The notes under the pieces are model-generated. The model was given only the letters and a program-made list of their open reading frames with translations, did not search any database and was not told the DNA's origin. A program made the position numbers and the translations under genes. 64,000 bases of DNA, taken from contig CANJXC010000006.1 of assembly GCA_947478845.1 (NCBI GenBank), positions 491-64,490 on the forward strand. Direction: 5' to 3'. The DNA is from Spirochaetales bacterium. Lineage in GTDB: Bacteria; Spirochaetota; Spirochaetia; JABEVK01. Of the stretch, positions 3,445-64,000 are shown one piece after another (the stretch's first letter is position 1; each line of letters starts with the position of its first letter).

Positions 3445-3446
3445 GG

Positions 3447-7047: not shown

Positions 7048-7167
7048 ATGGGTGACAAATCAAAGCAGAAGAAAGAGACCAAGAAGACGCCCTTGAAGAG
7101 TGCCGACGAAAAGAAAAAGGAAAAGCAAGCTAAAAAGGCCAGCCGACCTACTTCCTCGGCAGAGTAA
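7048..7167 (+). CDS. Small lysine-rich protein, 39 aa (MGDKSKQKKETKKTPLKSADEKKKEKQAKKASRPTSSAE)
   Basis: GAGGAGG Shine-Dalgarno just upstream of ATG 7048, TAA at 7165-7167. Below the ORF-track length cutoff. Confidence 0.55.
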   Translation: MGDKSKQKKETKKTPLKSADEKKKEKQAKKASRPTSSAE

Positions 7168-7534: not shown

Positions 7535-7535
7535 G

Positions 7536-9439: not shown

Positions 9440-9441
9440 GG

Positions 9442-11294: not shown

Positions 11295-11358
11295 GGGGCA
11301 ACTCCTGTGGGGAAGTGTAAGGAAAAGGACTGTCCACGGCAAGCAGGACCATGTTAGG

Positions 11359-14587: not shown

Positions 14588-15809
14588 GACCCAGCAACCG
14601 AGCCCGATTCAAAAAAGACGGGAAGCCCGGCCGCGCGTCAAAACTCCAGTACACCTCGGCCAACGCCTCTAGGCGGCCATCCAACCTGGTGTTTTCTTGA
14701 CCCGCCTTCAGGTGTTCCGTCCAAAGACAGGCCTCACCCCCCAGGATACCGCCTGCCAAGTGCTCGCAGCCCGGTGGCACCACAGGGTTTTCATACACTT
14801 TGGAAACCGGGATGACCTTCATGTATTTCTCGTCATACCAGCTGTTTTCTGGCGTATACGGATAATCGAAGTAGCAATATTCGGTATTGGAGCTCAAAAG
14901 TGGGTTACCAGCTTCCAGAGACTTTTTTGCCAAATCGGGGTGAAGCCACCACTGTGCCACCGCTGAGTGGGGGACGTTGTGCTCGACCATCTCATTCCAT
15001 CCCACCGCCGTCTTTCCACGGGCGCCCAAGTAAGCGATGAACCTCTGAAAGAATACTTCTTCCAACCCGCGTTCGCCTGCTAGAGACTCGCTTCGGATTT
15101 TTTCCTGGCACCGCGGGCACGCTTGCCAGGCTTTACGGATCACTTCATCGCCACCAATGTGCACCCAGGGCCCCGGAAAGAGCCTGCAGGTTTCCTCCAG
15201 CACGGTTTCGAGAATCGAGGCCGCCTTTTCGGAGGAGGCGCAATAGACTTGTTCGAATATTCCCCAGGTGCGAGGGATTTCTATGCTCTCTCCGGTGCAG
15301 GAAAGCTCGGGGTAGGCGGCTATGGCGGCGCTGCTGTGGCCCGGCAGTTCGATTTCTGGTACCACCACGATGCCCCTTGAGGCTGCATAACCCACAATTT
15401 CCACCACCTCGGCCGTGGAATAGAACTCTTCGCCCGACAACGCGGTAAGGCGTGGCAGAGCCGGGATTTCGAGGCGCCAAGCCTGGTCGTCCACCAGGTG
15501 CCAGTGGAAACGGTTAAGTTTGAGGGTAGCCATGCGGTCGAGCAGAGTCTTGAGATTCGCTACCGGAAAAAAATGACGTACGCAGTCAAGCATAAGTCCG
15601 CGCCATTCAAAACGGGGTTCGTCCTGGATAAGTCCTGAAGGCAAATGCTTTTGCCCCTTGAGCTGGTTCCAGGTTGCCTTAGCGTGGGAGAGACCCGCGG
15701 GATCAAGGGCCCTGAGGACCACCTCCCCGGCGTCGAGTTCTATCTCATAAGCCTCGGAGGCGACAAACCGTGGAACAAAACTCAACGCACCGACCAGCGA
15801 TTCGGTCAC
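14532..15809 (-). CDS. Beta-N-acetylhexosaminidase, GH20
   Basis: DEPRFEWRGLMLDCVRHFF, FHWHLVDDQAWR, VPEIELPGH, catalytic HIGGDE, GGEACLWTE. GTG 15809 has an AAGGA SD. Confidence 0.92.
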   Translation of the reverse strand: MTESLVGALSFVPRFVASEAYEIELDAGEVVLRALDPAGLSHAKATWNQLKGQKHLPSGLIQDEPRFEWRGLMLDCVRHFFPVANLKTLLDRMATLKLNRFHWHLVDDQAWRLEIPALPRLTALSGEEFYSTAEVVEIVGYAASRGIVVVPEIELPGHSSAAIAAYPELSCTGESIEIPRTWGIFEQVYCASSEKAASILETVLEETCRLFPGPWVHIGGDEVIRKAWQACPRCQEKIRSESLAGERGLEEVFFQRFIAYLGARGKTAVGWNEMVEHNVPHSAVAQWWLHPDLAKKSLEAGNPLLSSNTEYCYFDYPYTPENSWYDEKYMKVIPVSKVYENPVVPPGCEHLAGGILGGEACLWTEHLKAGQENTRLDGRLEALAEVYWSFDARPGFPSFLNRARLLGLNGPSWQVQPPSQPGAGG

Positions 15810-15952
15810 GCGGGTTCCTTGGGGCGAGAAGGTGTTGTGGCTGGGAAGAAAGGTTCGGACAGCAGGAATCGCAGGTAGTGAGTGGGGCATTTTCAGACCC
15901 TAAACCTGACTTCGGGTTTTGGCAATAGATTTTAACCCCCGTTCGAAAAGTC

Positions 15953-48854: not shown

Positions 48855-48937
48855 GCGGCGGTGGTGAAATGGTAGACACGCCAGCTTGAGGTGCTGGTGG
48901 GCGCAAGCTCGTGAAGGTTCAAGTCCTTTTCGCCGCA
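48855..48937 (+). tRNA. tRNA-Leu(GAG), CCA not encoded
   Basis: Acceptor stem GCGGCGG/TCGCCGC, D arm GTGAAATGGTAGACAC, anticodon arm CCAGC-TTGAGGT-GCTGG, long variable arm, T arm GAAGG-TTCAAGT-CCTTT, discriminator A. Confidence 0.95.
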
Positions 48938-48952
48938 CAAGTAAGTGGCTTC

Positions 48953-48976
48953 AAAAGCTCCCGGAAGGGAGCTTTT
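48953..48976 (+). terminator. Bidirectional rho-independent terminator after tRNA-Leu
   Basis: AAAAGCTCCC-GGAA-GGGAGCTTTT, a perfect hairpin with a T-run on both strands. Confidence 0.85.
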
Positions 48977-48992
48977 GTGTTTTCTGCCCCAG

Positions 48993-49148
48993 TGCGGCGA
49001 AAAGGACTTGAAAGGAGCCCCGCGCCGAGCGTGAGGCACCAAAGGTGCCGTCGAGGAGCAGCGCGCACGAGGCGCGCGACAGCGACGACGGCTGGCCGGC
49101 TGGGTTGGCAGGATGGCAACCCACGAAGGCCAAGTCCTTTTCGCCGCA
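48993..49148. repeat. 156-bp element bounded by inverted copies of the tRNA-Leu 3' end, with internal hairpins
   Basis: 48993-49012 is the exact reverse complement of tRNA 48918-48937. 49131-49148 is a direct 18-bp copy of 48920-48937. Confidence 0.85.
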
Positions 49149-49153
49149 AACGT

Positions 49154-49188
49154 AAAGCCCTTTAGGTCAATGACTTATGGGGCTTTTT
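49154..49188 (+). terminator. Imperfect hairpin plus T-tract after the third tRNA-end copy
   Basis: AAAGCCC-TT-TAGGTCA-A-TGACTTA-TG-GGGCTTT-TT. Confidence 0.55.
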
Positions 49189-49467: not shown

Positions 49468-49846
49468 CTAGTCTATGAGGAGCCGTAGTGTTCCCGTATC
49501 GCCGGCTCCCTGAAAATGCTGACTAAGCACCTGTCGGAACACGCTCTCCGGGCCGGCTGCCAGCGCGAACAGCGTCATGCTGGAATGGAACTTCAGGTTG
49601 TCCGGCACGGGAAAGACCTGATCTACCGTCAATAGGCTCGACTGGAACGCGATCGTGGACTCTTTGAGTCTGGCGCCCAAGACGGGGTGGGCCAGGTAGA
49701 CCTTTGCCGCTTCCAGGTTGTGCAATGCGTAGAATTGAGCTGTTTCCGAGTGCCCCAATCCCGCAAGTTGCGGGAACACGAACCACATCCAGTGCCGCCG
49801 TGTAGGTGGAGCGTTGAGCGTCGACAAACCGCTGCAAGTCACTCAT
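49468..49846 (-). pseudogene. DUF1810 family pseudogene (internal deletion plus frameshift)
   Basis: One frame reads MSDLQRFVDAQRSTYTAAL. A different frame continues HWMWFVFPQLAGLGHSETAQFYAL...HPVLGARL...DNLKFHSSMTLF. The usual linker before HWMW is missing. Confidence 0.8.
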
Positions 49847-50561
49847 CCGAACACCCTTAGGAAGGGGACGAAGTTGCCTTCCGGGTTGTGCTCGCGAAAC
49901 GCGTTGTGGTCTTCGAGAATCGCGAAGACTACCAAGGCAAACGCCCCGGCGAACTCCGGTTCCTCGAACACTTCTTGGAACAGTCGAGCGGTGTGCCCGG
50001 GTGGATTGCGGAAGGCCCCACAGCCGAAGGCGCTCAGCACCAGCGCGTCGTTCCCCTGATGTGCCGCGATTCGCAGAATTGCCCGCATGCGTTCCTTCGC
50101 GGCAGGCACGAGCGAAGGATCAAGCTCCCACGTTCCATCGCGTTGCTGTAACTCGGGTCGGTTGAGGGCCGGTACACTGACAACATCGAGGTGCAACGTC
50201 GATGGCAGGAGCTGGTACCCACTCGCCTCGCTGCTGCGGAAGAAGGCCGCCTGCGGACTGAAGGCACCTCCATGATCTCGGTCGAGGGGGTAACCGGTGG
50301 ATTGGTGCGGGTACAGCGAGACGAAGAGGTTGGAGCGACGGAAGAGGTTTTCTTCCTGGGCCCCAGCGCCGCTCTTCACTCCGCCTCCGGGAGTTTGGCG
50401 GTTGGCCATGTTGAGCAGGGCAGGTCGGCGTTTACCCGTGCTGTAGTGTCAGCATAGACGTCGCGACGAAGTTGGTGCAGTTGTTCGTGGTTCTTGGTTG
50501 ATGCGGCGATACGGAAATCAGCCAGCCATTGTTGGGCATTCCAGCGGTTGTTTGGGTCCAT
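49843..50561 (-). pseudogene. TIGR02452/DUF2263 (bacterial PARG-like macrodomain) gene, frameshifted by an internal deletion
   Basis: The N-terminus (MDPNNRW...LRRDVYADTT, from 50561) is out of frame with RPALLNMANRQTPGGGVKSGAGAQEENLFRRSNL...LVLSAFGCGAFRNPP. The GGG-x7-QEE signature is intact. Confidence 0.8.
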
Positions 50562-50711
50562 GTCTCATTGTAGCTCGGAATGATGCACTGGTGATGCACT
50601 TCGAAGCGGGGCACAGACGGCCCGAGGTGCTGAGAAGTTCTTCAATCATTGCGGGGTGCCAGCAAGGGACTCGCATTCAGATTTGATACTGCCGACCAGA
50701 CGCGGGAGGCC

Positions 50712-50981
50712 CTAGGTCGACTCTTGAAGGGCTAGGAGCGACAGGTACGCAGCGTGGTACTTGGCCAAACGGGCCAGAACTTTGTCGTCCAGCTTCTGAA
50801 GGCGGGTCAGGGTCATGTTCTGGGCCAAATCTGCCAGCTTGATGGCCCGGGTCTCGGGTTGGGCACCGGCTCGCGCCACGTAGGCCGCATAGTCCGCTCC
50901 CTTGGGTTTGGTGAGCAGGACAACCCAACCGACTACCTGCTCCGAAAACCCTTCGGCGAGCAGGCACTGGGCTGTCCAGGG
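50712..50981 (-). pseudogene. C-terminal remnant of an HD-domain (RelA/SpoT-hydrolase-like) protein
   Basis: Hand translation: PWTAQCLLAEGFSEQVVGWVVLLTKPKGADYAAYVARAGAQPETRAIKLADLAQNMTLTRLQKLDDKVLARLAKYHAAYLSLLALQEST*. An in-frame stop lies upstream near 51000; no HD motif and no start. Confidence 0.7.
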
Positions 50982-51095
50982 AACGGCCTTTGTTGAGAGC
51001 TAAGAGTATACGCCTGTAAATACTTGTAGCCCATGAAGTTTCATTTCGCCGATGGAATGCACCGACAGCGCACCCGCGAGGGCCAATCTGAGTGC

Positions 51096-51311
51096 ATGAG
51101 ACACCGAAGGGGACCCATCATACCCATCTTGAGACGTATAGCCGTCGCCGTTGCTCTGGCGCTGATCCTCGGCTACATCCTGAAGGCCGAACAACCGGCA
51201 AGCTACTTGCCTGCAGTGGGTAATGGCCGTTATGGGCCGACTGAGCACTTTCGTTGGCCCATGGAATTTTCTCTGAAAGACACCGTCGCGACAAGGCTGA
51301 AGGTCGTATGA
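51096..51311 (+). CDS. Possible small membrane protein
   Basis: A basic N-terminus followed by one hydrophobic helix (IAVAVALALILGYIL). No clear SD. Confidence 0.3.
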   Translation: MRHRRGPIIPILRRIAVAVALALILGYILKAEQPASYLPAVGNGRYGPTEHFRWPMEFSLKDTVATRLKVV

Positions 51312-51441
51312 CTGCCAGAAGGTGGACATCAAGTGGTCGAGACGTGGTGACTACTTTGTGGTCATTGTGGGATGGGGAGTGCCGTGGTGTAATGAACTCT
51401 GACTCTTCGTACGATCTGATGCTGGACCAAGGAGGTTCGTG

Positions 51442-52161
51442 ATGGGGCGGGGTGGCTACACCGGCGGGAGTTCATCGTTCAACATCTACAAAGGCGGATT
51501 TGCTTCTCACGACCCGGCTGCGCCCGACCCTGGTGTCGAAGTTTATCGTCCTGAAGTGAAGTTTGCGAAGCGAACAGCCGCAGCTCAACAAGTCAGGATT
51601 GATCAGGCGACAAAAGACTACATCTCCAGCATCATTGTCAGCTATCAGCTAGGTTCTATCTTGCCGCCCTGTCCGCCCGAGCTTCTGTCGGTGGTACATG
51701 CATCGATCAGAAAGGCAGGCGGTCCGCTGGAGTGGGTAAGGAGTCGGCCCGAATACCGCGAGATCTACGAGAAACACAGAAAAAAGTCGGTCACTAAAGC
51801 CGGTGAGCGGTATGAGGCTGACTTCCGGAAAGCCTGGGCCCGTGGCACTAGTCTACCTGAGCTACCTCCGGTGATCGCCGAAACCTTTGCGCTTGCGATC
51901 AAAGAGAAGGGGGGAGTACTTGAATGGACTCTCCTCAAACTCGACCTCGTCAAAGCACCCACGAAGTCGGCACGCACGTTCCCACCCTTGCCCCACCCGA
52001 TCTCGCCCCAAAACATCCAAGCCTATCTCCTCGAAGTGGGCTTCGGCGACGACAAAATGGAACTTTCTGACCTCGATTTGGAAGCCCTTTCGAAGCACCT
52101 CTTGAAGAAAGGAATACGAATCCCATTGAAGGACAGAAACATCAAGAGGAGTATAACTTGA
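51442..52161 (+). CDS. Hypothetical protein with an internal tandem repeat
   Basis: AAGGAGG SD. Two 41-aa repeats ending GGxLEW. Its stop overlaps the next start (TTGA). Confidence 0.75.
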   Translation: MGRGGYTGGSSSFNIYKGGFASHDPAAPDPGVEVYRPEVKFAKRTAAAQQVRIDQATKDYISSIIVSYQLGSILPPCPPELLSVVHASIRKAGGPLEWVRSRPEYREIYEKHRKKSVTKAGERYEADFRKAWARGTSLPELPPVIAETFALAIKEKGGVLEWTLLKLDLVKAPTKSARTFPPLPHPISPQNIQAYLLEVGFGDDKMELSDLDLEALSKHLLKKGIRIPLKDRNIKRSIT

Positions 52162-52553
52162 AGGCAGCGAAGAAACCCCAGCTCGCGAGCGTTGAGCAGC
52201 TCTTCGGAATGGAACCGCCTCAGGTCCATTGTTCCATTTGCGGCAAGACCCTTTTTCCCGATATGGAGAACATCGAGGGCGTCGAAGCCTGTGAGCACTT
52301 GGCCTTCGTCTTCTACGGCATTGCCGGAGAGTATGGCCACAAGTCGTCCGCCTTTGAAGCGAAGTTCCAGCCCGTCGAAGACGACTTTGACTCGTCGGAG
52401 TCCGTGACGGCGCTCGCCCAGGCCGGCTACAAGAACGAACTCCTCGTGCTCGAGATCACCTACGGTGGAATGGGCCACGGGCCAAGCTGTTACACCGACT
52501 TGTATGGGTTCGACTTCAGTATCGAACGAACCTCGGACCAAGAAGACCAATGA
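52158..52553 (+). CDS. Small acidic hypothetical protein with a CxxC...CxH putative Zn site
   Basis: TTG start with a GAGGAG SD. HCSICGK...ACEH. Overlaps both neighbours by 4 nt. Confidence 0.75.
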   Translation: MKAAKKPQLASVEQLFGMEPPQVHCSICGKTLFPDMENIEGVEACEHLAFVFYGIAGEYGHKSSAFEAKFQPVEDDFDSSESVTALAQAGYKNELLVLEITYGGMGHGPSCYTDLYGFDFSIERTSDQEDQ

Positions 52554-55345
52554 TTTACCGGCAGATTCTTGCGCACAATCGTCTCGAAAAGCCAGATGGA
52601 AGGCCCCTCTTTCGCTACCGCGTGCCGGAGCGCCTTCTGAATCCCCTCGACCTCGAGATCCGTTCCGGTCTCAAAGGAACTCCAACTTGGGAGGGCGCCC
52701 CCCTGTTTTGCCTTTGGGCTAGTCGAAAACTTCGCTCGCTGAGTGAGGACTTGCCCGGAAACCTGTCTTGGAACCAGCTCGGTCTAGGTCGTGAGTTTCC
52801 TCGAAGCCTCTTGGTTGGTTGGGCTGATCTCGGCCTGGAACGTTTGAAAAGGCCGATTGCAAAGAACGTCTCGGACGCCCACCTAAGGCTGCATACTCTC
52901 TTCCTCGAAGGTGGAGTGCCACTTCGTCAACTGCAACGGGATCTTTGGACGCAAGTGAAGACCCTCTTCACCTCGTTTCGTCCCCTTGGAACCGGTGCGA
53001 CCTTGGCTCACATACACGGTCGAGTAACCGAAAGCCTTCCCGATCTTCCACCTCTCAAGCTTCAGGCCCTCACGATCTTCTTGCGCGGGCTCGTTCAGCT
53101 GGATCAGGATGTGAGTTTTCAGCGATCGCTACCGAGCAACTGGGACGAGGCGACCGTTGCTAAGGCCTCGAGCCTCCTTAATGTCGAACTGCCTTCCGAT
53201 TTGGCTTGGCTGGATGCCCTGCTCCGCGAGACCCCGAGAGAGACCCGAAGGCGTACCTGTGGTGGTCTGTGGCTCGTCGAGGGTGTTCACTCCGGGGACG
53301 TGAAGTTGCTCTTTCAGCCTGACCTTCCAAGACGGCTTTCTCAGGGTGAGCTCACAGCGGACGTTTGGCTCCACCTGGTTTCAGACGGGAAGCGCACTTT
53401 TGTAGGTCGCTATGAAAAAACGGGTGAGGGACCGCTCCTCCAAGACCAGCGCCCTGTTGAGTTTGAACCGTCAAAGTCCTGGAACTCGGTTCGGCTCTTG
53501 GCGGAAGATGAAGACGACGAACCAGTTCGCTCGCCCGTTCAGCTTAAAGGTTTTGAAACCCCGAGTTTCCCTCTTGTCGCGCGCCGTGCTGACCTTTCGG
53601 CGACACGTTGGCTAGTCGTCCCCGCAAACTGGAAGCTCGTACAGGAAGGGCAAGCTCTCCTTCCAAGGGGTTCCTGGCTTGTCGCACCGTTTGAGCCCTC
53701 GGTTCAGATCTTCGACCCAGATGGGCAGCTCTTTGCGGTACCTGAACGAGAGGCTAAGCCGATTCCTCCCCTTGAAGGCTGGGAATCCCTGGAAGGGGTC
53801 CTTTTCGCAGGAAAGCCGGTTCGGACAAAGCTACCCCGAGAGATCACTGGTTGGGTTAAGGATCGAACCGAGGGACTTGTTACCTTTCGTTTCCTGGACG
53901 CAGAGGGCCGCACCAAGAGTCGCCAGCAGGAGGTTGTCCTTCCGGGTCTCTCCGTCGAAGGTAGGGTCTATCCCGCGGCCACGGCCCAAGAGCTTGCTAA
54001 GGTTCTCTGGACTGTTCGTCTTCCCTCGCCTTGGCATTTTGCCGAAACCGCCCGGGATCAGGGCGACGAAAAGGGCGTCTTCAAGTTTCGTACCGACTTC
54101 CGACAAGACCACGGAGACGAGGCTGGTGAACGTTTTCTTGTTACCGACGGTCTTCAGACTCTCACCTTGACTGCCTTTGCCTCGCCGCAGCTCTTCCTAT
54201 GCGAAACGGCCAACGCTCCGTTGCTTCAGGTCCACGAGTCGACCGTTTGGGAACAAGACCTCGTAGACCGCTGGTGGCTCTTCAAAACGAAGCGCGTGCG
54301 GGACCTGGTCGTCAATGATGAGGCTTTCGACCTCGATGTGCCCGAAGACGTCTCTTCGCGTCCAGGGCAGCTCTTGCTTCGGTCGTTTTCTGATCGCCTT
54401 CCCGTTCAGCCACACCCGACGGACCCCCTACGGAGTTTCCGTCAGCTTCGCTTGTTGGTACGTTCCAAGACCGTGGTGCACGCCGCTGGTTACCACGAGG
54501 AGTTACAGATAACGATCGAGAGTCACGCAATCGGTCTCGCTAGGTCGGCCTTGTTCCCCCTGGGGGAAGGTTTAAAGGTTCGAATCAACGCAGAGGGGTT
54601 GAGTCAACGCGAGCAGCCACCAGTCTTGCAGGTTCTTGCACTCTGGAACCCGAAAGCCGAGCCTCTGGTTCTCGCCCAGGAGGCCGACACTTATTGGCTT
54701 CCCGACGGCTGGCAGAATTATCCTGAAGGCATGTACTTACTCTATTGTGAGGCTCAGCCTAACTGGTTCCGGCCGGCCCTCTTTCCTCTCAACTCGGGGA
54801 GGACTTACGTTGGAGACTTGTCCCCCATGCAGCGGATTGCCCATGGGGAGGAGCTTGCTGAGCGACTCAAGGCCCTTCCCGCAGGAGAGGACAACTTCTA
54901 CAACCTCTCCCTTAAGGCATATTCAGAGCTCTTCCAGACCCTGCGCAACGATCCTGATAGCCCTGAATGGCTGACCCTTTGGCACACCCTTGGTCGTTTC
55001 GTGGCCTTTGGAACAGAGTTCCTTTTTCAGATCAAAGTGCTCCGCGAGCTCCTTCAGACCCCTGGGGAGGCGTCGGTTTCGGGCTTCCTCGGCCTTTTAT
55101 GGGCGGTGCGCGCAGGGTTTCTGGCGACCGGCGAAGCCGACTTGCCGGCCCATCGCCTAAATCGTCTCCTGAACAAGACCGAACGACCAGTGTTTGTCGA
55201 CTTCAAACTCAAACATCTAGCGACTAACTCTCAACTCGCTGGAGCTTTTGTTCAGGCTGTGGACCTTCTCCCAGAAACCTGGGTAGAAGGCCAAACCAGT
55301 CTCAAGGAAGTTCTAGCGGTTGTACGTCCGGAGGCCCACCCATGA
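52550..55345 (+). CDS. druH: DruH-like (STY4851/ECs_5259-type) protein
   Basis: The N-terminus KPDGRPLFRYR...LFCLWAS...SW...GL..L.RP...LHTLFLEGGVP matches the family as I recall it. It lies directly upstream of, and is coupled to, a DUF1998 helicase, the Druantia type III arrangement. Confidence 0.65.
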   Translation: MIYRQILAHNRLEKPDGRPLFRYRVPERLLNPLDLEIRSGLKGTPTWEGAPLFCLWASRKLRSLSEDLPGNLSWNQLGLGREFPRSLLVGWADLGLERLKRPIAKNVSDAHLRLHTLFLEGGVPLRQLQRDLWTQVKTLFTSFRPLGTGATLAHIHGRVTESLPDLPPLKLQALTIFLRGLVQLDQDVSFQRSLPSNWDEATVAKASSLLNVELPSDLAWLDALLRETPRETRRRTCGGLWLVEGVHSGDVKLLFQPDLPRRLSQGELTADVWLHLVSDGKRTFVGRYEKTGEGPLLQDQRPVEFEPSKSWNSVRLLAEDEDDEPVRSPVQLKGFETPSFPLVARRADLSATRWLVVPANWKLVQEGQALLPRGSWLVAPFEPSVQIFDPDGQLFAVPEREAKPIPPLEGWESLEGVLFAGKPVRTKLPREITGWVKDRTEGLVTFRFLDAEGRTKSRQQEVVLPGLSVEGRVYPAATAQELAKVLWTVRLPSPWHFAETARDQGDEKGVFKFRTDFRQDHGDEAGERFLVTDGLQTLTLTAFASPQLFLCETANAPLLQVHESTVWEQDLVDRWWLFKTKRVRDLVVNDEAFDLDVPEDVSSRPGQLLLRSFSDRLPVQPHPTDPLRSFRQLRLLVRSKTVVHAAGYHEELQITIESHAIGLARSALFPLGEGLKVRINAEGLSQREQPPVLQVLALWNPKAEPLVLAQEADTYWLPDGWQNYPEGMYLLYCEAQPNWFRPALFPLNSGRTYVGDLSPMQRIAHGEELAERLKALPAGEDNFYNLSLKAYSELFQTLRNDPDSPEWLTLWHTLGRFVAFGTEFLFQIKVLRELLQTPGEASVSGFLGLLWAVRAGFLATGEADLPAHRLNRLLNKTERPVFVDFKLKHLATNSQLAGAFVQAVDLLPETWVEGQTSLKEVLAVVRPEAHP

Positions 55346-58300
55346 ACCCTTTACTTGCTTTCCCCTCGGAACTCCGCAAGACTCTTGCGGAGGCAATTCT
55401 CTCCGACTGGAAACTCCGCAACGCCGACCTCGCCAACTGGCTGAAAACAGAGTTTACGAAAGAGGCCGGCTCTGACCTGTCATTGCTGGGTGAACCCCTC
55501 CTCAAGGCGCTTTTCGGCTATCGCCCCTACGAGAGATCCATGCGGCAGCTCGTGGACGACGGTTTGCTTAGCCGAAATCTTTTTGAGAAAGTGCCCCGCC
55601 TTCTCGGCGGTCTTGACAACTCAATGGCAAGACCGTACTCCCATCAGGGGGAGGCTTGGGCTTCGCTGCTAGCTCCAGAGCCAAGAGCCACGCTTCTCAG
55701 TGCCGGTACCGCCGCAGGCAAGACGCAGGCCTTTATGGTTCCCATCGTCAACTCCCTCGTCAGGCAACTTGAGGAGCGAGGTGAGGTGGAACAAGGAGTG
55801 CAGGCCTTGATCTTGTACCCGCTAAACGCCCTCATTGAGGACCAGCAACAACGGTTGACCGGCTACCTGAAACCGTTTCAAGGGGAACTTCGCTTCAGCC
55901 GCTGGAATGGTCTGACCCCGGAACAGGTCTCGAGGGCGGAACAAGCCAAGGTTCCGTGGGAAGTGTTGGACCGCTTCGGCATGCGTAACAGTCCTGCCTC
56001 GATTCTTATCACGAACATCACCATGCTCGAGTACCTCCTACTTCGGGACCAAGACGCTCCGATTTTGGCCAAGTCTCAAGGCAAACTTAAGTACGTTGTC
56101 GTTGACGAGGCACACAACTATCAGGGGGCTCAGGCCGAAGAATTGGCCCTTTTGCTCAAGCGCGTCCTTGATGCCTTCGGGGTAACTCCAAACGAGGTCC
56201 GTTTCTCAGCGTTCTCGGCTACCCTGGGGGATCGGACCAAGCCGGAGCCTCTCAGGAATTTTCTTCGGAACCTCTCTGGACGCACGGACTCTCGCCTCGA
56301 CGTGATCCATGACTCGCCCGTGTTCGTATCCCCCACGCTTGAGCCCAGCAACCCGTTCCTTCCTTGGACCCAAGCTCTTGAAGCCGCAGACAGCCATGCG
56401 GTTTTCGTCAAGGATTTACCGATTCTTTCCCAGACGAACGACCAGAAACCGCTCGAACTGCTGACCACCTTCACCCAAAAGGCGCCGGTGGGCACAGGTC
56501 TCAGCCTGCGCCTGAATCTCTTCGTGAAGACCTTGCCAGGACTCTTCGCCTGTTCCAATGCGAGCTGCCCGAGCCGACCTCCCGTGCCCTCCTGGAAGTA
56601 CGGTCAATTCTTGTCGGAACAACGTGAGACTTGCCCAGTTTGTTCTTACCCGGTTGGCCAAGTTGTGCGCTGCGGCTCCTGTGGCGAACCCCATCTCGCC
56701 CTTGCTGAAGACCCCGATGCGGCCGGGAAGCCGCACCTCAAGGCCCTAGGCGTGCCCTTCAAGACACTTGCGGAGGAGGAGGAGCAGGATGAGGAGCTCG
56801 ACCTCGATCCCGGGGTACTCCGCCTTCTGGGGCCTCCCCGTTCTGACAACTGTCGGTATCTTGAAGCGTCGGGTCGCGTATTCTCCACACCTTCAAAGGG
56901 CACACCCATCGCCTACGAGCTATATCTGGACTCCAACAAGAAGAACCAGCCGAGTTGCCTTGGTTGTTCGGCTAGGGGACTCCGACATTTCTCGCCCTTG
57001 AGGGCGGATGAGCCCTTTCTGCTCAATCAGTTTCCCTCGGCCGTTCTGAAGGTTTCCTCTCCTTCGTTGGCGGCCAGTAGTGAGGATCTTCCTTGGCAAG
57101 GAAGACGAGCGCTAAGTTTCACCGATGCCCGTCAAAAGACGGCACGCTACGCGCTCAACGCTCGCCTCGACGCGGAACGTAACTGGGTAAGACAGTGGCT
57201 TCTGCGGTTCTTGGCGTTGAAGGGTGGTCGTACGCCTAGAGTTCTCATCAATGCCCTGGACCTCGAATTGCAGAAGCCAACACGCGCGTACCTTCGAGAG
57301 TACTATCAGCCTGCACTCACGAGCCCACGGGATCTTGCCACCGTTCTGGTTCTTCGAGAACTTGGGCGTCGCTCGCTCCGGGGGACAAACCTCGAGGCCC
57401 TCGGACTTCTAGCTCTCGACTTCCCCGAACTTCAGGAGGTAGTCCTTCCGGTCGTCGCCGCCGAACTCCAGGTGGACCTCGCAAATTGGCGTCAGTTCCT
57501 TGCCGTTTTTCTCACAACAAGGGTTCGCACCAACTGGTGGCTGGACCTCGACGAGTTGGACTCGGCCACCGAGTGGCTCCAGGCCTACGTGACCTACAAT
57601 CGGCAACGCCCCCTTCTCAAGAGTTTCGTTCCGGAGGACTGCTCCTTCGTAAACAAGACTACCCAGAAGGCCAATTCCTACGGCGAACTTCTGTTTGGGA
57701 TGGACACGCAAGTTCTCGAAGACGAGACCGTTCACGAACGCTTAAAGCATGCGGTTTTTGATAGTTTGAAGTCCGTCTGCAATCTTGGGCTCGACAACGG
57801 GCTTCGACTGGATTTCCTCAACAAAGTCTCGGTTCGTCTTTTACCGGAGTTCTGGTACGGCACTGGTTTCGGTGAGGTGGTTTCCGAGACGGTCCAAGGG
57901 CGACATCCTCTCTTTGGTCGGGGCGAGCCAAAGAAACTGGCGTGGAACCTCGATTTTCCCAACCTGTTTCACAGCAGGGCGCAGGAACTGGAACCTTCCG
58001 TGGAGGCCCGCCTGACGGAACTCCGCGAGTTAGGGTTTTGGAACCACTATCACCAACGGCTCCTAACTGGAACCCACGACTTCGTCGTTCAGGAACACAG
58101 CGCCCAGATTCCACCGGCGGAGCTCAAAGTGAGAAACCAAGGCTTTCGGGACGGAACGATCAACTACTTGTTCTGTACTACGACCATGGAAATGGGCGTC
58201 GATATAGGCGAGCTGAACGCGGTAGTCATGAACAACGTACCGCCGCTCCCCGGCAACTATCAGCAGCGCGCCGGGCGCGCGGGTCGCGCCGGTCAACCCG

Positions 58301-59988
58301 TCTCGCTTGCCCTTACCTTGTGTCCGCCACGTCCGCTCGCGCTGCAACTCTACCAGAACCCCCGCTGGCTTCTCGGCCCGACGAAGGTCCCTCAGGTAAG
58401 GTTCCGCTCTCGTGAAGTCGTTTTTCGGCAGTTCCGTGCTTTGGCCCTAGGCCTTTGGGTTCGAGAGACGAACACGCACGACCCTTGGAAGAGCGTCAAG
58501 GACTTCTTTTTAGCTGATTCAGGCGTTGAAAGCCGCAGCGAAACGTTTCTGGCCTGGCTTTCAGCTCCTCCCGAAAAAGCAAAACTCCAACTATCAGACT
58601 TCCTCAACGGGACGCCCTTTGACGGCCTCTCCACCTTAGCAACTCGTCTGGCAGGCGAGAACCTACAAGAAGTTGCCGAGGCCTGGACTTCGTTGCGGGT
58701 ACGCCTTGAGCAGGACCTGCTCACGGTAAAGCGGGAAGGCAACTCAAAGGCAGAAGGTGCGGTCAACAGTCGGCTTCAGGCGGTTGAGGGTGAGAATCTG
58801 ATCGTGCATCTCTGCAGGCAGCTTTTCCTTCCTAGCTATGGCTTTCCGACCCGCGTCGTGGAACTCGAACTCCCCAAGACGTATTACGCTGGGACAGGGG
58901 GGCGTGGCCACCAAAGAGGTGGAGAGGGCCCCAGTCGCTCCCTCTCGATGGCCCTTCGCGAATACGCACCCAGCGCGAGCGTGCTTCTCGATCAGCACAA
59001 TTTCCGCGTCGCAGGAGTTCTCCCGAAGAGCCGGTTTCAAGCCGACAGCAAACTGCCCATCGTCAAGAACGACGTCTGGTATTGTTTGAACTGCGGCACT
59101 TCGGGGGATGGCTTTCTCGAGACGTGTCCGGTCTGCGCCAAACCCGTTGAGCATGTGGCCTATCTAGAACCTCAAGGGTTCTCCGTCGATGAGGCCCGGC
59201 CCCTGGTACCCTTGGACGAGGATTCGCAACGCGGGACCGTAGAGGTTCGGCCCCTATTGCCGACGGACGGAAAGGCCAGTGCTCGGTACTCCTCTGCCGA
59301 CAACAGACTCGTACTAGACCTGTACCAAGAAGGCTCTGGTCGCGTGTTCCAGGCCAATCGTGGCCTTGGCAAGCGCCCCTTTTTCTCGGGCTTCATCTAC
59401 TGCTGGGATTGTCATAGAGCGGTGCTCCATACCCCCGGTTCGGCGTGGCGCGAGGAGTTTACCCTAAACACTGCGGGCCGGCACTACCACCTCACAAAGC
59501 CCGGTCAGTTCTGCAAAGCCAGCGAGAACCAACTGCACCTGAAGATGTCACTGGGCTTCGTCATGAAGACTGACGTCTTGGTCTTTCGGGGTTCAAGCTT
59601 GTGGGGCGAGGACGAAGTTGTTGCCTGGACTCTCGGCGAAGCTCTTCGCGAAGTCCTGGCCCAAGACCTCAGCATCGTTGTCGATGATCTCGGTTTGGAA
59701 CTGGTGGCCTGGGAAGGGCAACTGGTCGTAGTCTTCTTCGATAGCCAAGAAGGGGGAGCGGGGCTAGTGGCCCAGATCCCGGAACTGTTGCCGAGCCTGT
59801 GGACTCGAGCCCTTAGGTTGCTTTCGTGTCGAGACGCGACCGACCAAGGCTGCGACGTTGTGTGTCACCACTGTCTGCTTTCAAGTCACACGCAGTTTCG
59901 TGCCGATCAGAGGCTGCTCGATCGCAAGAAGGGCCTTGCGGCCTTGCGAAGCTGGACGCCGGACCAGCTCAAGAAGGAGGTTTTGTGA
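55342..59988 (+). CDS. druE: Large SF2 DEAH helicase with Zn-finger inserts and a C-terminal DUF1998 (DruE-like)
   Basis: Q motif PYSHQ, GTAAGKT, YPLNALIEDQ, TNITMLEYLLLR, DEAH, SATLG, FTDARQ, EHSAQ, TTTMEMGVDIG, YQQRAGRAGR. DUF1998 reads FDSQEGGAG...C...C..VCHHCL. Confidence 0.85.
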   Translation: MNPLLAFPSELRKTLAEAILSDWKLRNADLANWLKTEFTKEAGSDLSLLGEPLLKALFGYRPYERSMRQLVDDGLLSRNLFEKVPRLLGGLDNSMARPYSHQGEAWASLLAPEPRATLLSAGTAAGKTQAFMVPIVNSLVRQLEERGEVEQGVQALILYPLNALIEDQQQRLTGYLKPFQGELRFSRWNGLTPEQVSRAEQAKVPWEVLDRFGMRNSPASILITNITMLEYLLLRDQDAPILAKSQGKLKYVVVDEAHNYQGAQAEELALLLKRVLDAFGVTPNEVRFSAFSATLGDRTKPEPLRNFLRNLSGRTDSRLDVIHDSPVFVSPTLEPSNPFLPWTQALEAADSHAVFVKDLPILSQTNDQKPLELLTTFTQKAPVGTGLSLRLNLFVKTLPGLFACSNASCPSRPPVPSWKYGQFLSEQRETCPVCSYPVGQVVRCGSCGEPHLALAEDPDAAGKPHLKALGVPFKTLAEEEEQDEELDLDPGVLRLLGPPRSDNCRYLEASGRVFSTPSKGTPIAYELYLDSNKKNQPSCLGCSARGLRHFSPLRADEPFLLNQFPSAVLKVSSPSLAASSEDLPWQGRRALSFTDARQKTARYALNARLDAERNWVRQWLLRFLALKGGRTPRVLINALDLELQKPTRAYLREYYQPALTSPRDLATVLVLRELGRRSLRGTNLEALGLLALDFPELQEVVLPVVAAELQVDLANWRQFLAVFLTTRVRTNWWLDLDELDSATEWLQAYVTYNRQRPLLKSFVPEDCSFVNKTTQKANSYGELLFGMDTQVLEDETVHERLKHAVFDSLKSVCNLGLDNGLRLDFLNKVSVRLLPEFWYGTGFGEVVSETVQGRHPLFGRGEPKKLAWNLDFPNLFHSRAQELEPSVEARLTELRELGFWNHYHQRLLTGTHDFVVQEHSAQIPPAELKVRNQGFRDGTINYLFCTTTMEMGVDIGELNAVVMNNVPPLPGNYQQRAGRAGRAGQPVSLALTLCPPRPLALQLYQNPRWLLGPTKVPQVRFRSREVVFRQFRALALGLWVRETNTHDPWKSVKDFFLADSGVESRSETFLAWLSAPPEKAKLQLSDFLNGTPFDGLSTLATRLAGENLQEVAEAWTSLRVRLEQDLLTVKREGNSKAEGAVNSRLQAVEGENLIVHLCRQLFLPSYGFPTRVVELELPKTYYAGTGGRGHQRGGEGPSRSLSMALREYAPSASVLLDQHNFRVAGVLPKSRFQADSKLPIVKNDVWYCLNCGTSGDGFLETCPVCAKPVEHVAYLEPQGFSVDEARPLVPLDEDSQRGTVEVRPLLPTDGKASARYSSADNRLVLDLYQEGSGRVFQANRGLGKRPFFSGFIYCWDCHRAVLHTPGSAWREEFTLNTAGRHYHLTKPGQFCKASENQLHLKMSLGFVMKTDVLVFRGSSLWGEDEVVAWTLGEALREVLAQDLSIVVDDLGLELVAWEGQLVVVFFDSQEGGAGLVAQIPELLPSLWTRALRLLSCRDATDQGCDVVCHHCLLSSHTQFRADQRLLDRKKGLAALRSWTPDQLKKEVL

Positions 59989-60041
59989 CCCAAGCCTTTC
60001 ACTCGCAGTGCGATCCATGCTGGAATGGTGCCCATGGCTAA
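59985..60041 (+). other. 18-codon mini-ORF bridging the helicase stop and the res start
   Basis: AAGGAGG SD plus a GTG overlapping the helicase TGA. Its TAA (60039-60041) lies inside ATGGCTAA of res. Confidence 0.45.
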
Positions 60042-63000
60042 CCCCTTCTTCGACCAACCGATTCTGAACTCTCCTTACGAGAAACCGGGCCGCCACTGGG
60101 AACTCGATGCGGAAGGGCAACCAACCCAGCAAATCATCCTTCGGCGACGCGAAGCGAAGTTCGTGACGCCGATTCCCAAGGCCAAGACCAGCGGAACTGG
60201 TGGCCGCAAAGGTTCCAAGAAAAAAGGGCAGGACACCTCAAAGTTGCTCGACCTCGTCTACGACGAGCAGGCTGCCGCCGTTTCAACGGACGAGCTGAAC
60301 TATGACCTGACGCAGACGATCAGTTCACTCCGTCACCAGGTAGACGAATGGCGCGCCCTGACAAACCCGAGTGACTGGAGGGTGACACCTGAAACGGCGC
60401 GCCTGCTCCAACATTGGCGCAGCCACCCCTTTACCAGCGTTCGCCCGTTCTTCTGCCAGCTGGAGGCCGTCGAGACCCTCATTTGGTTGACTGAAGTTGC
60501 TCCCAAGGCCGGCAAGAAGGGGGAGGACTTCCTGTCGAGCCTCAACGCCGCCAACGAGCAGGCCAACCCAGGCCTCGACCGTGTGGCCCTGAAACTGGCA
60601 ACCGGTGCCGGCAAAACTACGGTCATGGCCCTCGTCATCGCGTGGCAGACCATCAACGCCGTCCGTTACAAGAACAGCCGCTTCACGAAAGCCTTCCTGA
60701 TCGTCACCCCAGGGATCACGATCCGTGACCGGCTTCGGGTATTGCAACCCAATGACCCCGATAGTTACTACAAGAGCCGTGAGCTGGTTCCCGAGGAGTT
60801 GCTTCCCGAGCTCCAGAAGGCTCGCATCGTCATCACGAACTACCATGCCTTCAAACTCCGCGAGAAACTCGAACTCTCCAAGGGCACCCGATCGCTCCTT
60901 CAGGGCAACGGCGAGGATCTCAAGACGCTCGAGTCCGAAGGGCAGATGTTGCAGCGGGTGATGCCCGAGCTCCTAAACCTCAAGAATGTGCTGGTGCTGA
61001 ACGACGAGGCCCACCATTGCTACCAGGCTCGTCCAGAAACGAACGAGGAGAAGGAACTTCGCGGCGAGGAAAAGGCGGAGGCCGAGGAAAACAAGAAGGC
61101 GGCCAGCCTCTGGATCAACGGCCTGCGCGCGGTCGGAAATCAGCTCGGTTTGAACAAGGTCCTCGACCTCTCGGCAACCCCGTTCTTCCTCCGTGGCTCG
61201 GGCTACCAGGAAGGGACGCTCTTCCCGTGGACGATGTCCGACTTCTCGCTGATGGATGCGATCGAGTGCGGCATCGTTAAGCTTCCCCGCGTCCCCATTT
61301 CCGACAACATCTCCGGCGAGGAACTACCCATGTTCCGCAACCTTTGGGCCCACATCCGCGACAAGATGCCCAAGAAGGGACGTGGCAAGGGCGACGATGG
61401 CTTTCTGGATCCACATTCTCTACCCCCCCCGCTGTTGACGGCCCTTGAGGCGCTTTACGGCCACTACAAGGCCACCTACGAAGCCTGGGAGTCCGAAGGG
61501 ATGGGCGTGCCCCCATGCCTCATTGTAGTTTGTAATAACGTCACTGCCTCCAAACTCGTTTACGACTACATCTCGGGCTTCAATAGGCCCCACTCGGACG
61601 GGAGCACAAGTTTTGAGCACGGGAGACTCGAGCTTTTTCAGAACTTCGACAAAAACGGCACCCCCCATGCAAGACCTCGCACCCTGCTGATTGACAGCCG
61701 TGAACTCGACTCAGGCGAACCACTTAGTGACGCTTTCCATAAGGCGGCTGCAAGCGAACTTGAACGCTTTAGGCGCGAATACATTGAACGGACAAACGAT
61801 GTTGTTGGAGCCGCAAACCTAAAGGACGAAGACATACTCCGGGAAGTCATGAACACAGTCGGGAAGAGGGGACGTCTTGGCGCCTCGATTCGTTGCGTTG
61901 TCTCAGTTTCCATGCTGACCGAAGGTTGGGACACCAACACGGTGACGCACGTGCTCGGCGTGCGAGCGTTCGGCACCCAGCTGTTGTGCGAGCAGGTCGT
62001 CGGCCGAGCGCTCCGGCGCCAATCCTACGAGCTGAACGAAGAAAAGCTCTTCAACGTCGAGTATGCAGACGTGCTCGGCATTCCCTTCGACTTCACGGCA
62101 ACCCCAGTGTTGCCCAAGCCGATCAAGCCGCGTGAAACCGTGCAGGTGTTCGCAATCCGGCCCGACCGCGATGCGCTCGAGCTCACGTTCCCCCGGGTGA
62201 AAGGCTACCGCATCAAGCTCGAAGACCAGACACTTACCGCGCAATTCACCGAAGACTCGAAGCTTGTGCTGAGCGAAGAGCTCATCGGATCGACCCTGAC
62301 AGTAACATCAGGCATCATCGGCAAAACCGCCGAACTCAATCTCGAACACACAGGCGACCTTCGTCGATCAACCCTTGTGTACGAACTCACGTCGTACCTT
62401 TTGCTGAACTTCTGGAAGGATGAAGACGGCAATCCGCGCCTGACGCTCTTCAACAAATTGCGACCCCACGTGATGAAGTGGCTCGACCACTACTTGGTAT
62501 GCGAACCCGGAACCTACCCGGCCCAGCTGCGCTACAAATACCTTGCGAACTTGGCCGCAGAACGGATTCAAAACGCAATCACGCGGTCGGAGCAGCAGAA
62601 CAACCGTCCCGTGCTCGCCGTGCTCGACCCGTACAACCCGCAGGGGTCCACCAAACACGTTAACTTCTACACGTCGAATCCTCTGAAGTGGGAGACAAGG
62701 GCCGACAGGTGCCACGTCAACTGGGCCATTCTCGACAGCACTTGGGAAAAGGAGTTCTGTCGGGTGGTCGAGAACCACCCTCGGGTGCTAGCCTACGTGA
62801 AGAATCAGGACCTCGGTTTCGAGGTGCCGTACCTGATGGGGGCCGAGAAGCGGACCTACCTACCGGACTTTCTGGTGCACCTGGACGACGGTCACCGGCC
62901 TGAAGACCCGCTCAACTTGATCGTCGAGATCAAGGGCTACCGGGGCGAAGACGCCAAGACCAAGCGCGAGACCATGGACGTCTACTGGGTCCCCGGGGTG

Positions 63001-63153
63001 AATAACCTGGGCACCCACGGCCGCTGGGCGTTCGTGGAGCTCACCAACTTGTATCAGATGGAGGCCGACTTCGAGGCCTCGCTCACCCCGACCGTAAACC
63101 AGGCCTTTGAGGCCTTCGCTCAACCTGCCAACGCTGGAGCTAAGCATGCCTAA
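60034..63153 (+). CDS. res: Type III-like restriction subunit (SF2 helicase plus PD-(D/E)xK nuclease, BPTD_3080-type)
   Basis: RPFFCQLEA, KLATGAGKT, NDEAHH, LSATP, SMLTEGWD, QVVGRALRR, and the C-terminal YLPDF...IVEIKG. Confidence 0.88.
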   Translation: MANPFFDQPILNSPYEKPGRHWELDAEGQPTQQIILRRREAKFVTPIPKAKTSGTGGRKGSKKKGQDTSKLLDLVYDEQAAAVSTDELNYDLTQTISSLRHQVDEWRALTNPSDWRVTPETARLLQHWRSHPFTSVRPFFCQLEAVETLIWLTEVAPKAGKKGEDFLSSLNAANEQANPGLDRVALKLATGAGKTTVMALVIAWQTINAVRYKNSRFTKAFLIVTPGITIRDRLRVLQPNDPDSYYKSRELVPEELLPELQKARIVITNYHAFKLREKLELSKGTRSLLQGNGEDLKTLESEGQMLQRVMPELLNLKNVLVLNDEAHHCYQARPETNEEKELRGEEKAEAEENKKAASLWINGLRAVGNQLGLNKVLDLSATPFFLRGSGYQEGTLFPWTMSDFSLMDAIECGIVKLPRVPISDNISGEELPMFRNLWAHIRDKMPKKGRGKGDDGFLDPHSLPPPLLTALEALYGHYKATYEAWESEGMGVPPCLIVVCNNVTASKLVYDYISGFNRPHSDGSTSFEHGRLELFQNFDKNGTPHARPRTLLIDSRELDSGEPLSDAFHKAAASELERFRREYIERTNDVVGAANLKDEDILREVMNTVGKRGRLGASIRCVVSVSMLTEGWDTNTVTHVLGVRAFGTQLLCEQVVGRALRRQSYELNEEKLFNVEYADVLGIPFDFTATPVLPKPIKPRETVQVFAIRPDRDALELTFPRVKGYRIKLEDQTLTAQFTEDSKLVLSEELIGSTLTVTSGIIGKTAELNLEHTGDLRRSTLVYELTSYLLLNFWKDEDGNPRLTLFNKLRPHVMKWLDHYLVCEPGTYPAQLRYKYLANLAAERIQNAITRSEQQNNRPVLAVLDPYNPQGSTKHVNFYTSNPLKWETRADRCHVNWAILDSTWEKEFCRVVENHPRVLAYVKNQDLGFEVPYLMGAEKRTYLPDFLVHLDDGHRPEDPLNLIVEIKGYRGEDAKTKRETMDVYWVPGVNNLGTHGRWAFVELTNLYQMEADFEASLTPTVNQAFEAFAQPANAGAKHA

Positions 63154-64000
63154 GGATCTCGAAACCTTCCTGCACAACGACGAAACCCGCAAGAATCTCC
63201 CCACCGCCGAATACCAGGCCCTCGCTGATCCGCAGCTTAACGCGGCGATGAAGGTGGCGTTCGAGCGCCGCAACCCTGAACTCGACCCGCAGTTTGTGTG
63301 GCGCGGGAAGGACACCCAGGACTGGTCCGATCTGGTGGTCAACGCGCCTCCGCTGTACGTGCAGGAAAAGGTGCACCCCAAGGTGTTGATCGATGATCTG
63401 TTGAGGCAGACCGCAGCAAACCGTAAGCCCGACGATCAGATTGATCTCTTTGGTGACTTTGACGGAAAGGCCGTCGGCGCGGGAAAGACCGACTTCTATC
63501 AGCAGGAAGTGCCGTGGACTAACCGGATGATTCTAGGTGACAGCCTGAACGTGATGGCTAGTCTGGCGGAGCGTGATGGGCTTCGAGGAAAGGTGCAATG
63601 CATTTATCTTGATCCGCCGTATGGTATCAAGTTCAATAGCAACTTTCAGTGGAGTACGACGACAACTACCGTTAAAGATGGAGACCCAGCACACATTAGT
63701 CGCGAGCCTGAGATGGTTAAGGCATTTCGTGACACATGGCGTAATGGTATTCATAGCTACTTGACCTACCTTAGAGATAGGCTTGCAGTAGGCCGGGACC
63801 TTCTCTCCGATTCCGGATGTATCTTCGTTCAAATTGGAGACGAAAACGTTCATCGCATTCGCTCACTCTTGGATGAAGTGTTCGGCGATGAGAACTTTGT
63901 CAGCGAGATTGTAGTAGTTAAGACTTCGGGATTGGGCGCGAACACCCTTCCGAGACAAAACGATTTTATCCTCAAGTATGCGAAAGACCTGGATCGACTG
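63146..64000 (+). CDS. mod: Site-specific N6-adenine DNA methyltransferase (type III Mod-like), truncated by the window end
   Basis: Hand translation from ATG 63146: MPKDLETFLHNDETRKNLPTAE...NRMILGDSLNVM...IYLDPPYGIKFNSN...SYLTYLRDRL...IFVQIGDENVH. The frame is open to 64000. Missing from the ORF track because it has no stop. Confidence 0.92.
   Translation, partial: MPKDLETFLHNDETRKNLPTAEYQALADPQLNAAMKVAFERRNPELDPQFVWRGKDTQDWSDLVVNAPPLYVQEKVHPKVLIDDLLRQTAANRKPDDQIDLFGDFDGKAVGAGKTDFYQQEVPWTNRMILGDSLNVMASLAERDGLRGKVQCIYLDPPYGIKFNSNFQWSTTTTTVKDGDPAHISREPEMVKAFRDTWRNGIHSYLTYLRDRLAVGRDLLSDSGCIFVQIGDENVHRIRSLLDEVFGDENFVSEIVVVKTSGLGANTLPRQNDFILKYAKDLDRL

Follow-up and report, generated by a model that had tools for sequence, protein, structure and literature searches.

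In a 64,000-nucleotide (nt) stretch of contig CANJXC010000006.1, from an uncultured freshwater Spirochaetales-like genome (the window; position 1 is its first letter), a train of genes on the + strand extends from position 51442 to the window end. It encodes two small proteins, ORF1 and ORF2 (from open reading frame), a DruH-like protein, the helicase DruE, an 18-codon mini-ORF, a restriction endonuclease (Res) and a DNA methyltransferase (Mod). We interpret the locus as a defence island in which a type III-B Druantia system and a restriction-modification (R-M) system of the BPTD_3080 family stand side by side, and not as one composite machine; we put the probability of this interpretation at about 0.75. 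The identities proposed in an earlier note on this DNA, a Druantia-III-like pair and a type III-like R-M, were borne out, and the PADLOC search that it had called for matched DruE3, DruH3 and MTase_III. Its further proposal, that the helicase pair and Res/Mod work as a single composite system, is not supported by the distribution of these genes in other genomes.

Independent distribution of the two modules

The comparison set for Res consisted of 12 plasmid loci and 76 IMG/VR loci, 88 in all. DruH, DruE and ORF2 were not found within 10 kb of Res in any of the 12 plasmid loci or the 76 IMG/VR loci, and Res/Mod of the window type were missing from all 16 other DruE loci compared (the 3 closest ones, 4 canonical plasmid DruHE loci and 9 near-full-length loci from IMG/VR). 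It is these two zero counts, 0/88 and 0/16, that speak against a single system. The linkage of druHE with res/mod was thus seen in no other compared locus. Homologues of ORF1 and ORF2 occur elsewhere without druHE and are absent from the three loci closest to the window DruHE (L012, L013 and L014), and the hidden Markov models (HMMs) of the two families co-occur in the window locus alone. The neighbours of canonical DruHE vary, being type I R-M, Zorya II/ARMADA II or a WYL gene, and those of the closest DruHE loci are cas6-cas1-cas2, a CARF protein or unrelated genes. This independent distribution resolves the train into the units DruH-DruE, Res-Mod-(passenger)-UvrD-like and two small genes.

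It could still be supposed that ORF1, ORF2, DruH, DruE, Res and Mod form one obligate machine, in which the nuclease-less DruE borrows the nuclease of Res by a DISARM-like logic. The genes are co-directional with tight junctions, DruE has no nuclease and the Res encoded after it has one, the mini-ORF would couple druE and res, and DISARM offers a precedent for a YprA-like helicase combined with a methylase (PMC12458937). However, besides the lack of any co-occurrence, the nuclease-less DruHE pairs nearest to that of the window stand alone, in Mycobacterium smegmatis a DruH-DruE pair that has no nuclease suffices by itself for defence (PMC13316683), DrmA profiles match at 1.6e-12 compared with 6e-302 for DruE3, and Res-Mod has another conserved partner, a UvrD-like helicase. 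We regard this composite as already disfavoured and very improbable. DISARM is the nearest known system to the composite idea, as it also encodes a YprA-like DUF1998 helicase beside a DNA methyltransferase, but the DISARM genes co-occur as a set and the genes of the window do not. The window locus was also considered as a DISARM system itself and rejected: the DrmA match is partial, there is no PLD protein (DrmC), and the methylase is MTase_III/BPTD_3080-linked.

In the interpretation that we favour, the island sits 3' of a tRNA-Leu gene and would hold at least two autonomous systems head to tail, with every biochemical activity assigned by homology. By analogy to characterised Druantia III, DruH would be a sensor or partner that binds single-stranded DNA (ssDNA) and works with the PLD-less DruE helicase, and the two would act directly on phage DNA exposing ssDNA or 3' overhangs. 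In the second module, methylation of host sites would fall to Mod and cleavage of unmodified DNA to the ATP-dependent Res, with the UvrD-like helicase as a conserved partner and rmuC as an inserted passenger. ORF1 and ORF2 would be small accessory or passenger genes belonging to two rare families.

The DruH-DruE pair

DruE matches PADLOC DruE3 at 6.3e-302 and the solved DruE (PDB 9tu7) at 2.5e-157, and carries the Pfam domains DEAD (8e-22), Helicase_C (2e-12) and MZB/DUF1998 (1.7e-9). It shares about 29% identity with canonical DruE. When it is aligned with canonical DruEs of 2075-2108 amino acids (aa), the match ends near their residues 1695-1716, and since it stops near canonical residue ~1700, the protein is without the C-terminal PLD region of ~390 aa. 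Subtype III-B is separated from III-A by the absence of PLDs, its definition being DruH together with a compact DruE (10.64898/2026.05.13.724758), and DruE proteins of a 'type III-like' branch usually have no nuclease domain (PMC12458937). Judged from its sequence, the DruH-like protein and DruE constitute a compact, PLD-less type III-B Druantia.

The DruH-like protein matches PADLOC DruH3 (5.6e-7) and NCBIfam YjiT_fam (1e-11) in its N-terminal part only, and has a precomputed PF27201 YjiT_N annotation. A profile built from it and three orthologues matched the solved DruH (PDB 9tud) at 1.2e-11, and hhalign aligned its residues 4-396 with canonical DruH at 98.3% probability. For the C-terminal ~530 aa no homology to canonical DruH was detected, and similarity there is found within the compact clade alone. 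These matches identify the protein as a divergent DruH whose N-terminal ~400 residues are homologous to canonical DruH/YjiT.

A search of 5.8 billion protein clusters returned only three close relatives of DruE, with 44-49% identity and lengths of 1423-1545 aa (L012-L014). A full-length DruH-like gene (31-35% identity) lies directly 5' of druE in all three, and ORF1, ORF2, Res and Mod occur in none of them. The DruH-DruE pair is therefore conserved and self-contained, as L012-L014 share no further gene with the window locus. In L013, cas6-cas1-cas2 and an unknown 406-aa gene (786-4205) are divergent to druH, which is the first gene after them; in L014, a Cas_APE2256/CARF gene (1523-2638) abuts druH.

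With studied III-B systems the window pair shares the two-gene druH-druE organisation, the overlapping genes, the DEAD, Helicase_C and MZB/DUF1998 domains and the lack of a PLD nuclease. The closest system studied by function is the DruH-DruE of M. smegmatis (PMC13316683), and the structural reference is the III-A system of Escherichia coli (PDB 9tu7 and 9tud), in which the PLD domains are dispensable (10.64898/2026.05.13.724758). DruE has been characterised as a 3'-5' helicase that is activated by ssDNA or 3'-overhang DNA (10.64898/2026.05.13.724758), and the characterised DruH is an ssDNA-binding protein. The window pair differs from other III-B systems in having two extra small genes upstream, an R-M operon fused downstream and a Spirochaetales-like host, and its DruH is shorter than that of canonical Druantia III (931 aa versus about 1120 aa).

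The restriction-modification module

Res was assigned to the NCBIfam BPTD_3080 equivalog NF046055 with 1258 bits against a cut-off of 800. Its superfamily 2 (SF2) ATPase motifs GAGKT191 and DEAH324 are invariant in 9 homologues, as are D901/E913/K923 and P944-D945 in the C-terminal part, so the endonuclease region is conserved; the alignment contains 217 invariant columns across these homologues. In Pfam, Res matches ResIII, and RE_endonuc was found at 21.3 bits, below its cut-off of 23.4 bits. The match to PADLOC REase_III is weak and partial (1.6e-5 over 43 residues), and a search against PDB sequences gave no match. Mod contains the Pfam domain N6_N4_Mtase with DPPY ahead of the GxG motif, and matches PADLOC MTase_III (PDLC03632) at 1.4e-120 for the fragment in the window and with E=0 and 1299 bits at full length. 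Compared with the Mods of the closest Res loci, it shows 57-64% identity. The two proteins are thus predicted to form an R-M system of the BPTD_3080 family.

The system resembles classical type III R-M (EcoP1I/EcoP15I) in combining an N6-adenine Mod, with DPPY before GxG, and an ATP-dependent SF2 Res with a C-terminal endonuclease region. It differs in its reversed gene order, its weak REase_III match and a third conserved gene encoding a UvrD-like protein. Because of the res-then-mod order, the weak REase_III match and the lack of a solved relative, we call it type III-like and not classical type III.

Among the compared Res loci, Mod is present in 11 of the 12 from plasmids and in 61 of the 76 from IMG/VR. 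A full-length orthologue of the UvrD-like gene (44-56% identity) follows Mod in 5/6 of the closest plasmid loci and 12/14 of the closest IMG/VR loci, a total of 17/20; its NCBI annotation is '3'-5' exonuclease'. Gene content across these loci indicates that the conserved unit of BPTD_3080 R-M is a set of three genes, Res-Mod-UvrD-like. Passenger genes are interspersed among the three. Here the passenger is rmuC; elsewhere toxin-antitoxin pairs, DUF3883, CBASS genes and hypothetical genes were seen. Such an arrangement is seen on Gemmobacter fulvus plasmid p6 and Pseudomonas avellanae p1NCPPB4222, which have the same res-then-mod order, 59-61% (Res) and 57-60% (Mod) identity to the window proteins, and a downstream UvrD-like gene of ~690 aa that is 49-50% identical, likewise with passengers between the components. 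What sets the window apart from these loci is that its res is not the first gene of the operon, lacks a Shine-Dalgarno sequence (SD) and begins 45 nt past druE, and that its passenger is rmuC.

Organisation and junctions of the gene train

The coordinates of the features are given in Table 1. A string check confirmed all six junction sequences reported in the earlier note at the positions claimed: TTGA between ORF1 and ORF2 (52158-61), ATGA between ORF2 and the DruH-like gene (52550-53), ATGA between the DruH-like gene and druE (55342-45), GTGA between druE and the mini-ORF (59985-88), ATGGCTAA between the mini-ORF and res (60034-41) and ATGCCTAA between res and mod (63146-53). Its statement that every junction overlaps holds if the 18-codon mini-ORF is counted as a gene and fails otherwise. 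The start of Res at 60034 is fixed by the N-termini of eleven homologues (M..FFxxPILNSPY), which leaves DruE and Res 45 nt apart unless the mini-ORF is counted.

The mini-ORF is preceded by a perfect SD, AAGGAGG, at 59973-79, 5 nt ahead of its GTG start. Res has no SD of its own, and several plasmid-borne homologues that head their operons have one. Translation of the mini-ORF is plausible, and given its position it may serve the translational coupling of the SD-less res. The placement of an SD-less res behind an SD-bearing mini-ORF suggests that the fusion has been tuned, with selection for co-expression. A predicted fold pairs the SD of the mini-ORF with codons 4-7 of res (CCCCUUCUUC), at an energy no better than that of shuffled sequence; no significant RNA structure was detected in the druE-res spacer (z = -0.13).

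The earlier note had seen no terminator in the train, and a pattern scan agrees with it: terminator-like sites are not in excess, with 19 seen and 19.9 expected from shuffles. The terminator scan gave a single strong hairpin, at 48952-77, after tRNA-Leu and upstream of the train, and one weak sigma-70-like site was found by pattern scan. Co-transcription of the train genes as one long transcript is plausible and indeed probable, and their co-expression is very likely.

A 151.6-kb metagenome contig (L008) contains the identical sequence of the window, and on it the train can be followed past the window edge. The full-length Mod has 922 aa (L008 17805-20573). It is followed by RmuC (488 aa), whose start codon comes directly after the Mod stop (gap 0), by the UvrD-like helicase (junction TTGA), a 692-aa protein with an extra N-terminal domain of ~230 aa (PADLOC NERD+UvrD/GajB-like; phrog_1967), and by a divergent SfsA-like nuclease (junction ATGA). 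Since the train runs on past the window, the tightness of its junctions cannot mark the limits of one system. At least six further exact -4/-1 overlaps were counted at other same-strand junctions in the window with a crude longest-ORF gene call; overlaps and tight packing are not distinctive and are common in the host genome.

The AT skew is -0.02 to -0.12 across druH/druE and +0.09 to +0.16 across res, with the flip at ~60 kb (window positions 53000-63000). This change of sign at the DruE/Res boundary fits separate origins of the modules.

Table 1. Positions of the features described in the text (window numbering unless a locus is named)
Feature	Position	Strand	Remarks
ORF1	51442..52161	+	239 aa; uncharacterised
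ORF2	52158..52553	+	131 aa; uncharacterised
DruH-like protein	52550..55345	+	931 aa
DruE	55342..59988	+	1548 aa; YprA-like SF2 helicase
Mini-ORF	59985..60041	+	18 codons; spans DruE stop and Res start
Res	60034..63153	+	1039 aa; BPTD_3080-family restriction endonuclease
Mod	63146..64000	+	DNA methyltransferase; 284 of 922 aa in window, rest past window edge
Genes past Mod	L008 20574-24647 (window-equivalent 65915-69988)		RmuC, UvrD-like, SfsA-like; 0 or -4 junctions
tRNA-Leu(GAG)	48855..48938	+	ARAGORN; Rfam tRNA 52.4 bits; upstream edge of island region
25-nt direct repeat of tRNA-Leu 3' end	48920-48944 and 49131-49155	+	92% identical, 211 nt apart; repeat search
ORF1-family genes after type I hsdR	L015/L022 8001-8609; L021 7998-8606; L023 7779-8435; L016; L017/L018		
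ORF1-family genes between mod and UvrD-like gene, BPTD_3080 loci	L028 16922-17281; L127 17914-18306		
Res-Mod loci with UvrD-like gene	plasmids L025, L026, L028, L029, L032; IMG/VR L121-L128, L130, L134, L143, L144		

Possible cooperation between the modules

The preference for two separate systems has to be weighed against several observations that tell the other way. The fusion is unusually intimate, and no promoter or terminator could be recognised between druE and res. The SD-less res and the SD-bearing mini-ORF that bridges to it are compatible with functional cooperation. The plasmid and IMG/VR samples are biased towards mobile elements, the close DruHE relatives number just three, with the downstream sequence visible in two, and a scan of GTDB genomes with the DruE sequence alone returned no relatives. 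Expression data were sought, and no RNA runs holding the locus were found.

It is possible, if rather unlikely, that synergy between the independent modules has been selected. Cleavage by the R-M system and end processing would then make ssDNA or 3'-overhang substrates for DruHE, and the joint phage coverage would exceed the sum of the two. By analogy with the characterised DruE, which such DNA activates, it is conceivable that restriction products feed the helicase. Druantia III-A preferentially clears restriction-sensitive phages, and the lost SD of res together with the bridging mini-ORF suggests selection for co-expression. The closest parallel is the Zorya II-Druantia III-ARMADA II array of E. 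coli, in which co-directional independent systems also lie beside a tRNA gene and in which Druantia III is reported to synergise with its neighbours without forming one machine with them (PMC12458937; 10.1101/2025.09.22.677730). However, the synergy was observed with other partner systems and not with the BPTD_3080 R-M family, and the array recurs in hundreds of strains, whereas the pairing of DruHE with BPTD_3080 R-M is seen nowhere else and is carried by one strain. Tight packing, moreover, is the norm in the host genome. We therefore retain the reading of two autonomous systems side by side.

The ORF1 and ORF2 families

The earlier note had suggested that the two upstream genes may be extra subunits or regulators. 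An accessory role receives some support, but the support is split between the two modules: a homologue of ORF2 occurs in a DruE-type operon (L210), and the ORF1 family occurs in R-M operons. Judging by gene neighbourhoods, the association of each family with one of the two kinds of system does not appear to be random.

ORF1 is basic (isoelectric point (pI) 9.6) and has an SD, AGGAGG, 6 nt upstream of its start. The signature MGRGGYTGGSS is found in its N-terminal part, and the module 'PP..L....I.KAGG.LEW' occurs in it twice. A word-indexed search recovered only the protein itself, and nine remote homologues were found by a full phmmer search of 1.8 billion representatives. The family is characterised by an invariant N-terminal MG(R/K)GGYxGGST, a basic stretch and 1-3 copies of the module 'PP..K....L...I..AGG...WA..QPE(Y/F)'. 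All of the ORF1-family neighbourhoods that were readable are restriction loci. In Aquibium, two Mesorhizobium and two metagenome contigs, the family member comes immediately after the hsdR of an hsdM-hsdS-x-hsdR operon. In L020 it is flanked by an HNH-like and an Mrr gene, and in two BPTD_3080 loci (L028 and L127) it separates mod from the UvrD-like gene.

These contexts raise the question of whether ORF1 belongs functionally to the R-M module, as part of a unit 'ORF1 ... Res-Mod-RmuC-UvrD-like' into which ORF2-DruH-DruE was inserted. The positions after hsdR, between the HNH-like and Mrr genes and between mod and the UvrD-like gene all point in this direction, as does the frequent presence of passengers between the genes of BPTD_3080 operons. 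However, ORF1 of the window lies 7.9 kb 5' of res and outside the triad, the L028 and L127 proteins share with it only the N-terminal ~40 residues with the signature and a basic coiled-coil tail, the hsd-linked cases come partly from related Phyllobacteriaceae, and the family is of no known function. We consider such a unit doubtful, and keep ORF1 as a small accessory or passenger gene.

The AlphaFold2 (AF2) model of ORF1 is confident only at a helical core (residues 46-134), and a fold search of this poor model against the PDB gave no match. A scan of GTDB with the ORF1 family gave 3 loci, with 68 more motif matches that were unconfirmed by tblastn and not inspectable, and tblastn of the ORF1-family proteins against plasmids returned the query itself alone. 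Neither ORF1 nor ORF2 matched PHROGs, Pfam, NCBIfam or PADLOC, save for a Pfam ORF68_C match of ORF1 that was below threshold and was disregarded. Both families are absent from an 845-kb unrelated background, and pattern scans of IMG/VR for the two families found none. The members in L210 and L127 were found only by local HMM scans of loci fetched for other purposes.

ORF2 is acidic (pI 4.4) and has eight homologues. Their alignment shows an invariant CxxC...CxH motif, a putative zinc site, and a C-terminal ITYGGM..GP..YGFDF motif. Its AF2 model (pLDDT 79.8) gave no fold match in the PDB or BFVD. The homologue in L210 (IMG/VR UViG_3300004097_003605) aligns over its full length (hhalign 97.9%) and is encoded in a distant DruE-type operon (3426-15874) in the order 578-aa unknown, ORF2-like (119 aa), 1256-aa unknown and DruE (2098 aa). 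The best matches of this DruE are DruE1 (1.7e-185) and DruE3 (1.4e-167), and the operon adjoins a divergent RtcR-like CARF-sigma54 regulator. The 1256-aa protein was considered as a DruH and rejected, as it is not DruH-like and has no PADLOC match. L210 is an unclassified Druantia-like operon.

Other members of the ORF2 family have different surroundings. A clade of 154-aa proteins (more than 90 contigs) has a chromosomal setting, with an ArsR-type regulator on one side, a VTT/DedA gene on the other and arsenic-resistance genes nearby. Two further members lie in island-like neighbourhoods with TerB-domain and DUF4007-like genes (L001 1677-12063 and L024, the latter also with a WYL-like regulator), which points to a further island setting for these proteins. 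The 180-aa and 154-aa genes found 5' of the ORF2 homologues in L001 and L024 were compared with ORF1 and are not ORF1-like.

A more far-reaching proposal can be made from these links, which we hold to be improbable: ORF1 and ORF2 would be the first representatives of two accessory families in DNA-targeting immunity that had gone unrecognised. ORF1-type proteins (MGRGGYxGGS) would modulate ATP-dependent restriction enzymes such as type I HsdR and BPTD_3080 Res-Mod-UvrD, ORF2-type proteins (CxxC..CxH) would be facultative partners of DruE-type helicases, and the fusion wired by the mini-ORF would let III-B Druantia and R-M cooperate on shared DNA intermediates.

Genomic setting

The island is preceded by pepF and tRNA-Leu(GAG). 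The 3' end of the tRNA gene is repeated downstream (Table 1), and the repeat pair, which encloses the terminator-like hairpin at 48952-48977, looks like an attachment-site (att) scar, that is, a remnant att site. Such a scar would make tRNA-Leu an integration hot spot. An att repeat bounding the whole island was not found within the 24.6 kb of sequence searched. On the - strand, 49468-50409 holds a DUF1810 ORF and a truncated PARG-like ORF that retains just the C-terminal part of the catalytic domain; both are probably decayed genes. The ~1 kb 5' of ORF1 (50410-51440) contains no convincing gene, and the gene calls between the PARG-like ORF and ORF1 differ on the identical contigs L008 and L009.

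DNA of the window is present in freshwater and lake metagenomes from several studies. The locus is known from one strain; DNA runs with a low share of it contained the same strain at low depth, with no structural variants. A PepF-anchored metagenome scan, aimed at sister strains that carry or lack the island, yielded nothing but PepFs of ~50% identity, and these loci were reused as the 845-kb unrelated negative background mentioned above.

Significance

As the locus shows, a defence system cannot be delimited by translational coupling or the lack of intergenic gaps: here both span at least two independently distributed systems and run past the window. It adds a divergent example from the Spirochaetales lineage to the little-studied PLD-less type III-B Druantia, and it indicates that BPTD_3080 R-M conserves Res-Mod together with a UvrD-like helicase as a unit, in whose slots passenger genes gather. 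Two rare small-protein families are also brought to attention, ORF1 in restriction operons and ORF2 in a DruE-type operon. The link of ORF1 with R-M, the link of ORF2 with DruE and the Res-Mod-UvrD triad are the leads that follow from this analysis. If neighbouring modules do synergise, the mini-ORF bridge would be a concrete case of separate immune systems becoming co-regulated.

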